Part shown: in pieces, positions 38,980 through 41,405 of the stretch
How positions within the stretch are numbered: the stretch's first letter is position 1
How the letters are laid out: the number at the start of each line of letters is the position of its first letter
Origin: Eledone cirrhosa
Taxonomy: Eukaryota
Assembly: GCA_964016885.1 (NCBI GenBank)
Contig: OZ024741.1
Location: 270,196,001-270,260,000, forward strand
Direction: 5' to 3'
Length of the DNA stretch: 64,000 nucleotides
Program-made: the position numbers and the translations under genes
The notes under the pieces: model-generated
What the model was told of the DNA's origin: nothing
The model's database searches: none
The model's input: the letters and a program-made list of their open reading frames with translations, nothing else

Positions 38980-39152
38980 TTATAGAAGGAGCTTCTACAG
39001 GACTAGTACTGTTTCATTCAGATGAAATCTTCAGGAATGAAACAGTACTAGTCCTGTAGAAGCTCCTTCTATAAAATAAAAAAATTTTACTCTGCCATGT
39101 ATTGAGTACCTTACTTACTGTGGTTATCCCCGACTCAACCCGGGACCTACGT
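38980..39152 (+). mobile_element. Fold-back element with HHR core at the hairpin apex, plus conserved tail, in (TA)n
   Basis: Perfect 40-bp arms 38980-39019 and 39035-39074. The minus strand reads TTC-CTGAAGA-tTTCatctGAAt-GAAACAG-tactagtc-CTGTA^GAAG across the loop. The tail contains TACTC..TATTGAGTAC. Confidence 0.8.
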
Positions 39153-39236
39153 ATATATATATATATATATATATATATATATATATATATATATATATAT
39201 ATATATATATATATATATATATATATATATATATAT

Positions 39237-39640
39237 ATAATAAGATATATGAACGTAAGAGAGGAGGAAATAGAGAGATACAGAGAAGTGCGATACAGAT
39301 TACTAAGTACCAATAGCCGAAGCGGGATGTGGTGCTCAATGCTTGGGTTAGCCGAGTTAGATATTAGAGAAGATTTAATATTTAGTAGATTGTTCAAGCA
39401 GAGCAGGTATAAGCAAATGAATGAATAAATGAGTTAGTTACAAGCCGTTAAAACAAGTTCTTTATATAAATTTTACATAATGTTTCGCCCACACGGGCTC
39501 CTCAGAGAAATGATTGTTTATATAATGTCATCAATAAATATAAATACCCGGGTAGCCGGCTGGAGATCTTTCCATTAGATTAACGTCATCTTGCATGGTA
39601 GGTGAAAACGGCCTGTAACTCCTTCATTCATTTGCTTATA
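39237..39640 (-). mobile_element. PLE pLTR-derived element with HHR, short inverted copy and conserved tail
   Basis: Inverted match 39408-39449 vs 39608-39640; HHR at 39468-39512; minus-strand tail ACTCGGCTAACCCAAGCATTGAGCAC; (TA)n on both sides. Confidence 0.7.
39468..39512 (-). ncRNA. Type I hammerhead ribozyme
   Basis: Minus strand CATTTCT-CTGAGGA-GCCCgtgtGGGC-GAA-ACATtATGT-A^AAAT. Canonical core and G-C-closed stem II; stem I is imperfect. Confidence 0.75.
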
Positions 39641-39788
39641 TATATATATATATATATATATATATATATATATATATATATATATATATATATATATATA
39701 TATATATATATATTTATATATATATATATATATATATATATATATATATATATATATATATATATATATATATATATATATATATATA

Positions 39789-40669
39789 GATGCAGAAAAG
39801 TTCCAGGACTGATGTCACAAAAGATTTATTTCAAACCCAAACTTCACAGTAAGAGTTTTCTCCTTCAAAGTAATCCCCCTGGAGTATGTAACTGTAATCT
39901 TAGCTCTCTGCAGGGATCAAACTTTTTTCTTCATAATTTTATATACATGTCCTCTGTTTCAGGTCGTCAAGCAATGAGCACAGAGCAACGAACAAACTTG
40001 AAGTTTCTGGTACGGTTGGGGAAAACTCCGTCAGAAGCACTGGGATTGCTGCAGCAAGTGTATGGAGATGAGACGATGCAACGATCACTTGTTTTTGAGT
40101 GGTGCAAGATGACCCCAGGAGCGGAAGGCCTTCAACAACTAGGACTGAGGTCAATGTTGAGCGCATCAGGAGAGATGGTGCGTAGCGATCGTCGGCTGAC
40201 TGTTCGACTGATGGCAAATGAGCTGGGCATGAATCGGGACAGCGTCTGGAAGATTCTCACTGAAGATTTGGACATGCGGAAAGTCTGCGCGAAGATGGTG
40301 CCAAAACTGCGGAACCATGACCAGAAGGGTCGTCGCATGCAAGTGTGCCAGGACATCCTCGAGCGTCTTGAAACCGAACCAGACTTGCTAGGGACAGTCA
40401 TCGACGGTGAGGACTCATGGATCTTCGAGTACGACCCGGAGGTGACCCGTTTTGAAGACGTGGACGACATCAAAAAGGCTCTGACGACGGAACTGCGGAG
40501 GATCCCGGAAGAATCCTTCCAGGAGTGCATGCAAGCGTGGCAGAAAAGGATGGAAAAGTGAAATAGACTCCAGGGGGAGTACTTTGAAGGAGAAAACTCT
40601 TAGCGTGAAGTTTGGGTTTGAAATAAATCTTTTGTGACATCAGTCCTGGAACTTTTCTGGCACACCTCA
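39789..40669 (+). mobile_element. Mariner (Tc1/mariner) DNA transposon, internally deleted
   Basis: ~100-bp inverted ends 39789-39886 / 40567-40669 in (TA)n, consistent with the TA target. Transposase fragments include HTH region [18 protein letters not shown], (D)DPRSGRP, KMVPK (WVPH-like), [13 protein letters not shown] and terminal GEYFEG. Confidence 0.95.
39974..40592 (+). pseudogene. Mariner transposase pseudogene
   Basis: ATG at 39974. Frameshifts near 40110-40170, a deletion after EYDPE that removes the 2nd and 3rd catalytic Asp region, and a stop at 40559-40561. Confidence 0.9.
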
Positions 40670-40944
40670 TATATATATATGTATATATATATATATATAT
40701 ATATATATAGATAGAGAGAGAGAGAGAGAGAGAGAGAGAGAGAGAGAGAGAGAGAGAGAGAGAGAGAGAGAGAGAGAGAGAGCGCGCGAGAGTGAGAGAG
40801 AGAGAGAGAGGAGAGAGAAGAGAGAGAGAGAGAGAGAGAGGGAGAGAGAAGAGAGAGAGAGAGAGAGAGAGAGAGAGAGAGAGAGAGAGAGAGAGAGAGA
40901 GAGAGAAGAGAGAGAGATATATATACACACACATATATATATAT
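40670..40944. repeat. Compound (TA)n-(GA)n microsatellite
   Basis: Directly visible. Confidence 0.95.
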
Positions 40945-41190
40945 ATAGTATAAAGAAAACGAAAAATCAGTGATGCACCTGGACTCAATTTATTGCATAT
41001 TACAATTGTTTCGCCGGCAGGTAGCTCCTACTTGCCGGCGAAACAATTGTAACACGCAATAAATTGAGTCCAGATGCATCACTGATTTTTCGTTTTCTTT
41101 ATACTATCTACACTCTACTCTGCTGAATATTGAGTGCTAATTTTGGCATACCGTCTAAGGAAGCACCATAGCTAACATTATACACAAGTA
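40945..41190 (+). mobile_element. Fold-back element (80-bp arms) folded in presumed HHR stem II, plus conserved tail
   Basis: Arms 40945-41024 / 41028-41107. The apex GCCGGCAGGTAG-ctc-CTACTTGCCGGC is followed directly by GAAACAATTGTA. Tail CACTC..TATTGAGTGC, then (TA)n. Confidence 0.8.
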
Positions 41191-41211
41191 TATATATATA
41201 TATATATATAT

Positions 41212-41405
41212 ATAGGAAAAAGTATGACCACGACGGCAGAGCTCAAGCCGTTTCGACGGCTATTTCTGAACTGAAATAGCCGTCGAAACGGCTTGAGCTC
41301 TGCCATCGGAGTCATACTTTTTCCTATTTCCCACTCTACTACCCTAAGTATTGAGTACTCTGGTGTGTTATGGTCCATCTGGTTCCTTACCACAATTTCT
41401 TTGTT
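41212..41405 (+). mobile_element. Fold-back element (55-bp arms) folded in presumed HHR stem II, plus conserved tail
   Basis: Hairpin 41212-41327 with loop TGAACT. The apex is followed by GAA-ACGGC-ttgagctct-GCC(G/A)T-C^, i.e. stem III and a GUC triplet (GTC in the left-arm copy). The tail matches the 36399 element. Confidence 0.85.

Follow-up and report, generated by a model that had tools for sequence, protein, structure and literature searches.

The stretch analysed here, called the window throughout, is 64,000 nt of animal DNA from Eledone cirrhosa (contig OZ024741.1). It is rich in microsatellites and holds remains of short and long interspersed elements (SINEs and LINEs) and of mariner, together with broken reading frames of Penelope-like elements (PLEs). 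Three short palindromic elements, E1 (38980-39151), E2 (40948-41188) and E3 (41215-41408), each counted as palindrome plus tail, are centred inside stem II of a hammerhead ribozyme. In all three a spacer separates two mirrored arms, and only one arm runs on into a tail. The features are as follows.

38928-38979 (left of E1), 39152-39250, 40934-40947, 41189-41214 and from about 41409: (TA)n runs, the target sequence.
38980-39019, minus strand: inverted, tail-less arm of E1; antisense copy from the inner start site, 40/40 complementary to 39035-39074.
39020-39034, minus strand: spacer of E1; continuation of the inverted arm, which takes in the CTGAAGA box and the 5' part of stem II.
39035-39074, plus strand: tail-bearing arm of E1; last 4 nt of stem II, GAAAC at 39039, 4-bp stem III, GUA, 3' strand of stem I.
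39075-39151, plus strand: unique tail of E1, 77 nt; shared motif near 39089.
40948-41024, minus strand: inverted arm of E2, 73/77 complementary.
41025-41027, minus strand: spacer of E2, likely antisense, with GAG at the matching place on the hammerhead strand in two contigs of another organism (organism C below).
41028-41104, plus strand: tail-bearing arm of E2; 12 nt of stem II, GAAAC at 41040, 2-bp stem III with AATT loop, GUA.
41105-41188, plus strand: unique tail of E2, 84 nt; motif at 41112.
41215-41266, minus strand: inverted arm of E3, 49/52 complementary; start site fixed across the family.
41267-41272, minus strand: spacer of E3; antisense of six parental bases adjoining the stem II strand.
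41273-41324, plus strand: tail-bearing arm of E3; 12 nt of stem II, GAAAC at 41285, 5-bp stem III, predicted cut after 41307.
41325-41408, plus strand: unique tail of E3, 84 nt; its motif is at 41333, and the family has a fixed outer end.

The palindromes are real and lie where the initial annotation of this DNA had placed them. The arms of E1 (38980-39074) match at 40 of 40 positions around the 15-nt loop 39020-39034, those of E2 (40948-41104) at 73 of 77 around a 3-nt loop (41025-41027) and those of E3 (41215-41324) at 49 of 52 around a 6-nt loop (41267-41272). Perfect runs reach 40 in E1 and 32 in E3, and only 4 from the apex in E2; the longest perfect arm in 20 Markov shuffles is 8-11 bp (microsatellite-masked region, loop of at most 20 nt). 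With their tails the elements measure 172-241 bp and are asymmetric (arm, spacer, arm, tail), where 95-165 bp had been given. The three arm sequences are mutually unrelated, and in all three the tail strand bears the 3' half of a hammerhead. GAAAC starts 4 nt after the apex in E1 and 12 nt after it in E2 and E3; the earlier observation that the apices of the latter two stand where stem II belongs is supported. Beyond it, each element has a stem III, whose loop is palindromic, and a GUH triplet. The reverse complement of the E1 loop begins with CTGAAGA, so this loop is indeed the antisense CUGAAGA/stem II segment that had been recognized in it. A whole core with its stems can be read in the inverted arm of E1 and in an unfolded relative, and only the 3' half with stem III is seen for E2 and E3. 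Cleavage is predicted after 39058 in E1, and majority letters at 41305 and 41310 among the relatives of E3 restore its GUC site. The tail-bearing arm of E2 has 15 nt identical to a hammerhead with a long stem II at 57447-57559. Rfam reports no family at gathering score for the palindromes, and among the 150 E-value matches listed, of 155 in all, there is no hammerhead, most being generic microRNA hairpins below threshold. The hammerhead call therefore rests on the core motifs and the stems.

On the right side only, the palindromes run into unique tails of 77, 84 and 84 nt (E1, E2 and E3), after which (TA)n resumes. The same repeat stands immediately to the left of each palindrome, in agreement with the integration at (TA)n proposed earlier. 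The tails align over a common motif that begins 7-14 nt into the tail. A strict pattern of this motif has four matches in the window, in E2, E3 and two further elements, E4 and E6, against a mean of 0.01 in 100 Markov controls. The tail of E1 fits a looser pattern and not the strict one, and the match in E6 lies downstream of a whole hammerhead core. The tails fold no better than shuffles (z from -1.27 to 0.40), and we claim no conserved tail structure.

Four of 23 public runs were aligned to 40935-41400, an interval that holds E2 and E3 only and not E1. They contribute 19015 contigs (X1) and 22073 reads (X21) from organism A, 292 contigs (X4) from organism B and 63 contigs (X5) from organism C. 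X1 may share its source with the window. The alignment rows listed comprise 24 of 556 loose ends, 15 of 108 skip joints and 12 of 76 between-letter rows, and loose ends can be read to 30 letters. Both elements belong to high-copy families. At the inner end of the E3 family, (AT)n follows 41327, the mirror of the inverted-arm start, in 3320 X21 reads and 167 X1 contigs. At the outer end, 8082 X21 reads and 141 X1 contigs leave at 41394, with (AT)n about ten letters on. The centres vary, and the 22 distinct skip joints among the rows listed resume at 41299-41371. Two fixed end points about 80 nt apart with variable centres are the known PLE architecture of an inverted pseudo-long terminal repeat (pLTR) plus tail. 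In organism B the tail-motif region of the E3 family (41318-41384) is present at high depth with differing letters upstream and downstream, which makes the motif the most conserved part of the family.

Three further copies in the window bear on these elements.

36402-36491, plus strand: E4, of the E3 family; inner start as in E3, 17-bp arms, 55-nt tail; 94% identical to E3 over 69 nt.
34940-35002, plus strand: unfolded relative of E1, without a tail; its hammerhead core is whole, and it stops at the E1 inner start site, before a SINE fragment.
39250-39636, minus strand: E6, tail-bearing; whole hammerhead core at 39505-39474, tail motif at 39357, short 32-nt inverted arm, sense spacer.

The centre of E4 is shifted about 35 nt downstream relative to that of E3 and falls no more than 1 nt from the predicted cleavage site. 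At one and the same place, both arms of E3 have one letter and both arms of E4 another. Since the two arms of each copy carry that copy's private letter, the mirror arm is copy-specific. Together, the inverted arm and the spacer of E1 match the unfolded copy at 84% over 57 nt (E 1e-10); this copy has TTC before the core box, which suggests a 3-nt overlap (39035-39037) between the inverted copy and the tail arm. Its minimum-energy fold is a three-way junction, yet not more stable than shuffles (z 0.14). A tail-motif reading of the hairpin just after the unfolded copy (35007-35081) was discarded, because this is a SINE fragment with further copies at 47241, 49230 and 57683. The search for unfolded parental copies suggested in the initial annotation thus yields a whole-core relative for E1, while the relatives found for E2 and E3 show no short stem II hairpin.

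On the hammerhead strand of the E3 relatives, the consensus before 41273 ends in AGTCCA (1814 reads with loose ends, agreement 0.54). This is the reverse complement of the E3 loop given the majority G at 41269, found in 712 of 1111 X21 reads. In 607 reads the sequence goes on beyond 41272 and becomes AT-rich. A contig of organism C, with seven of the intervening letters supplied by the X21 consensus, places the partner strand of E3 stem II about 33 letters off, and an inner helix lies between the two strands. Because this contig shows the upstream partner, the 12 nt before GAAAC in E3 are a stem II strand. Judged by these relatives, the native loop of stem II is long, and the loop of E3 comes from the inverted arm. 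Two organism C contigs have GAG in the place of the CTC on the E2 plus strand and show no hairpin upstream. The spacer thus belongs to the tail-less arm in E1 and E3 and, judging by these two contigs, probably in E2 as well. A parent with a short stem II hairpin, as had been assumed, does not agree with the 33 or so further letters within stem II in the E3 relatives, nor with the two hairpin-free relatives of E2. Depth in X1 drops eightfold across the E2 apex (16314 against 129828). A second cleavage site and a 3' splice site, both at the GUC inside the E3 parental stem II, were considered and dropped, as several joints run 1-7 letters beyond. Hammerhead cores with a stem II region of about 85-95 nt and a paired base occur elsewhere on the plus strand, at 57447-57559 (stem II region of 94 nt, fold z -1.94) and at 36081-36188, where the long stem II was read by eye. 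Hammerhead searches with short stem II descriptors would miss such cores and the parents of palindromes of this kind.

The spacer is antisense in six of the seven tail-bearing inversions of the window, namely E1-E5, with spacers of 15, 3, 6, 1 and 6 nt, and 35088-36292. E5 (37549-37780) was read from alignments. The orientation of the 35088-36292 spacer comes from its G-skew of 0.29, compared with 0.37 and -0.36 for the arms. The tail-less inversions 42204-45452 and 51549-52578 could not be given an orientation and were left out of the count. Among the skip joints listed, all 22 have the same polarity and 20 leave the inverted arm at 41264-41273. The larger inversions have features of their own. 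The pair at 35088-36350 has inverted arms of 395 bp (98%) around a 415-nt spacer; its tail, on one side only, extends for about 58 nt until (TA)n begins. At 37058-37780 there is a retrozyme-like partial tandem of a hammerhead-bearing unit of about 440 bp on the minus strand, with a core at 37365, an inverted arm and a tail of about 50 nt; the tandem itself spans 37058-37663 and is of a family other than E1-E3. The tail-less pair at 51549-52578 (338 bp, 93%) lies in (TA)n and has a minimal hammerhead-like core at 51691 (minus strand) and an endonuclease C-terminal remnant near 51990.

Broken frames combining reverse transcriptase (RT) and GIY-YIG parts occur at 58.8-61.8 kb and at 43.9-44.8 kb; the second of these is flanked by inverted repeats that carry hammerheads. 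The RT of the window gives a weak RVT_1 match, and PF26215 clusters at 0.97-0.98 with a low recognition score. Pfam matches are limited to weak RVT_1, zf-RVT and HTH_48, all below cut-offs and in three of eight frames, and NCBIfam has no match in three of three frames. CxxC and GIY-YIG-like motifs after the RT were read by eye in the translations. The remnant with these two motifs at 42204-45452 stands between inverted repeats with hammerhead cores at 42320 (minus) and 45336 (plus), and its left arm is broken by about 1.1 kb of other sequence. At 58077-62845 the broken RT plus GIY-YIG frame lies between 274-bp direct repeats at 93%, in neither of which two scans found a hammerhead core. Pattern scans for relatives, two each, gave no match in genome contigs and none in viral contigs; a single metagenome contig that matched is a GC-rich chance match without element flanks. 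Among the other repeats of the window, a 47-bp satellite covers 1-34766, with 740 copies, 96% matches and a strong skew between the strands. Eleven copies of a 51-bp unit form an array at 46433-46987. At 53720-57276, at least three 3' ends from a single LINE family, which looks like one with a restriction-type endonuclease, are nested in a row, each ending in (AAT)n. A 28-bp imperfect inverted repeat surrounds a SINE-like hairpin, beside a SINE fragment, at 50244-50328.

E1-E3 share several traits with PLEs: a type I hammerhead in the terminal repeat (whole in the inverted arm of E1 and in its unfolded relative), an inverted, 5'-truncated copy beside a direct copy, (TA)n or AT-rich targets, a one-sided tail defined by two fixed start sites (the fixed ends being seen in the E3 family) and variable 5' truncation (E3 versus E4, and the 22 joints listed). 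They are not tandem, unlike the monomers of non-LTR retrozymes, each of which has a whole hammerhead and no open reading frame. We consider it on balance probable that they are 5'-truncated PLE ends, in which two reverse transcripts, one for each nicked strand of a TA run, are joined head to head. Both strands of the run would be nicked, and each would prime a cDNA of the element RNA, the two cDNAs starting at two fixed RNA sites about 80 nt apart. Both cDNAs would stop early, often in hammerhead stem II, and their ends would be joined, either with 0-7 nt of microhomology or with a few extra letters. Each insertion would create its mirror arm afresh, and the palindromes would be dead ends without a CUGANGA box on the tail strand. 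We infer the PLE origin of these families, the priming on both strands, the stalling at stem II and the mode of joining. Either autonomous PLEs or retrozymes that a PLE protein mobilizes may have been the parents. A more specific version is tentative, and we regard it as rather doubtful: the two RTs of a PLE dimer would work on one RNA, the inner-primed one leading and the tail-primed one following by strand displacement, unable to pass. The leader would stall in the long stem II or, in E4, run off a ribozyme-cut 5' end, and the follower would stop 0-15 nt behind.

Other origins can be weighed against the same features. The route put forward in the initial annotation has the nascent cDNA, taken here as tail-primed, fold back onto the native stem II hairpin and prime itself. 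All three centres do lie in stem II, the spacer of E6 is sense, and in E2 the 12 bp beside the apex could be a native hairpin in a subfamily, X1 keeping about one eighth of its depth across the apex. However, a snap-back in cis of a tail-primed cDNA must leave a sense loop, and the loops of E1 and E3 are antisense on the tail strand, so this route is rejected for both; the two organism C contigs say the same for E2. Moreover, the E1 junction is upstream of the core box and not in stem II pairing, the stem II of the E3 relatives encloses about 33 letters and would leave that spacer rather than 6 nt, and E4 and the joints show centres outside stem II. As an account of the elements we find it quite improbable. 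An antisense spacer does result if instead the inner-primed cDNA folds back on chance microhomology, copies itself and then joins a short second cDNA that supplies the tail. This is also self-priming, on another cDNA than had been proposed and not on native stem II. Overlaps of 3 nt are available for it in E1 and E5, and nine of 14 skip joints listed share 1-7 letters. On the other hand, E4 has a loop of 1 nt, E2 has one of 3 nt without a visible overlap, several joints have added letters, and under DNA parameters the E1 cDNA would form the required 3-bp pairing with a probability of about 0.005, though an enzyme could stabilize this fold. We take this course to be unlikely.

Self-priming on an antisense RNA template was proposed by Arkhipova et al. 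in 2013 for the same head-to-head architecture, in the accessible part of PMC3846280. It leaves the two fixed ends with variable centres, and the cut-site centre of E4, unexplained, and the accessible text of PMC11167929 has the protein extending both DNA strands from sense RNA in vitro; we hold it to be very improbable here. Miniature inverted-repeat transposable elements (MITEs) or foldback DNA elements, moved by a TA-targeting transposase and carrying a chance or captured hammerhead-like piece, would also be short palindromes flanked by TA at high copy number, and there is a mariner between the palindromes. That element (39789-40669) is internally deleted, lies in (TA)n and has 93-bp terminal inverted repeats, and served as the positive control for such repeats. 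The ends of E1-E3 are unlike those of mariner: there are no symmetrical, fixed terminal inverted repeats, the tails are one-sided, and members of a family differ in their centre. Any target site duplication specific to a transposon family would be hidden within the (TA)n. An unfolded copy also exists, and three unrelated arm sequences all have a hammerhead 3' half on the tail strand. A DNA-transposon origin can hardly be credited, and the retro-derived nature suggested from the start is upheld.

Several results weigh against the joining of two cDNAs as described above. CTGANGA is not seen for the E2 or E3 family, where loose ends are only 30 letters long, and no copy of the three families in the window or the run data could be linked with a PLE frame. 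Published tails, at 30-40 nt, are about half as long. In the accessible part of PMC11167929, the two strands did not differ in start site with the PLE protein PAc in vitro. The sense spacer of E6 is a counterexample to the polarity bias, six of seven falls short of significance (two-sided p 0.125), and of the antisense calls three are weak: E2 depends on two contigs of another organism, E4 on 1 nt and 35088-36292 on base skew. The reference sequence favours skip joints that include the E3 loop and biases the joint counts, so that the uniform polarity of the 22 joints and the clustering of 20 are suggestive only and no proof of a hot spot. Stalling at stem II is not a rule, since many copies, 3291 X21 reads whose loose ends lie at 41272-41277, continue across the stem, and four larger inversions of the window are centred elsewhere. 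Finally, sequence alone does not separate end-joining from the fold-back of an inner-primed cDNA.

LINE-1 twin priming provides a parallel, in that both target strands prime on the element RNA and the cDNAs are joined by microhomology. Twin priming inverts without duplicating, whereas in E1-E3 the stretch is copied twice, from fixed start sites. The element type is itself already known. The accessible part of PMC3846280 (2013) describes PLEs with an inverted pLTR, a one-sided tail and palindromes at the junctions, and proposes self-priming; that of PMC8557442 gives the same architecture with (TA)n targets and names the formation of the inversion as open. Insertions in these two papers and in PMC8969392, within their accessible text, resemble E1-E3 in the head-to-head inverted copy, the junction palindrome, the one-sided tail, the hammerhead in the repeat, the AT-rich or (TA)n targets and the microhomology at 5' junctions. 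They differ in that only 170-240 bp are left of E1-E3, with tails of 77-84 nt, centres inside the hammerhead, a spacer mostly of the tail-less arm and no open reading frame linked to the families. PAc, from the Poseidon element of Anolis, is the one PLE protein studied in vitro; according to the text available from PMC11167929 it nicks and extends both strands at AT-rich targets and starts at two internal RNA sites, downstream of the hammerhead, that define the tail. The same text contains no discussion of inverted products or of where cDNAs end, and it reports no reads ending at the cleavage site, whereas the centre of E4 lies there. Metazoan PLE type I hammerheads and retrozymes, as far as PMC4209133, PMC7229834 and 10.64898/2026.07.22.740005 were accessible, have like core boxes, short palindromic stem III loops, dispersed truncated copies and opposite-strand pairs. 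In the available part of PMC4209133 such pairs of minimal hammerheads are 100-700 bp apart. The published pairs have whole cores, whereas the pair in E1-E3 is fused inside stem II. The stem II regions of the relatives, about 55-95 nt, compare with a helix II of 6-8 bp in the published examples seen and with core halves 35-50 nt apart in some Naiads (PMC8557442, accessible text). Four short E1-E3 motifs were not found in the PMC8557442 supplement as available, where line breaks may hide a match, and two octopus Naiad 3' ends from the accessible material, compared by eye, are unlike E1-E3. MITEs, as described in the available text of PMC8969392, are likewise short, palindromic and numerous with TA flanks, whereas E1-E3 have a one-sided tail, a variable centre and no fixed symmetrical ends. 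Among the papers searched, which did not include subscription papers or bioRxiv supplements, none deals with palindrome centres inside a hammerhead or with spacer polarity.

Palindromes of this kind can be misfiled as MITEs or microRNA hairpins. The stumps are short enough to be read whole and exist in very many copies, so that start sites, stop sites and spacer polarity become countable. If the trailing of one RT behind the other is true, a single rule would account at once for head-to-head inversion, tails on one side, short antisense spacers and palindromes centred on the hammerhead, and the formation of PLE inversions would become countable from one genome. The lopsided anatomy offers a test of how PLEs insert, and a strong antisense bias, if true, would link insertions in genomes with the chemistry observed in vitro, in which two strands and two start sites are used. 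The centre of E4 at the predicted cut is an indirect hint of ribozyme self-cleavage, and a peak of centres at the cut site, if found, would show cleavage in vivo.

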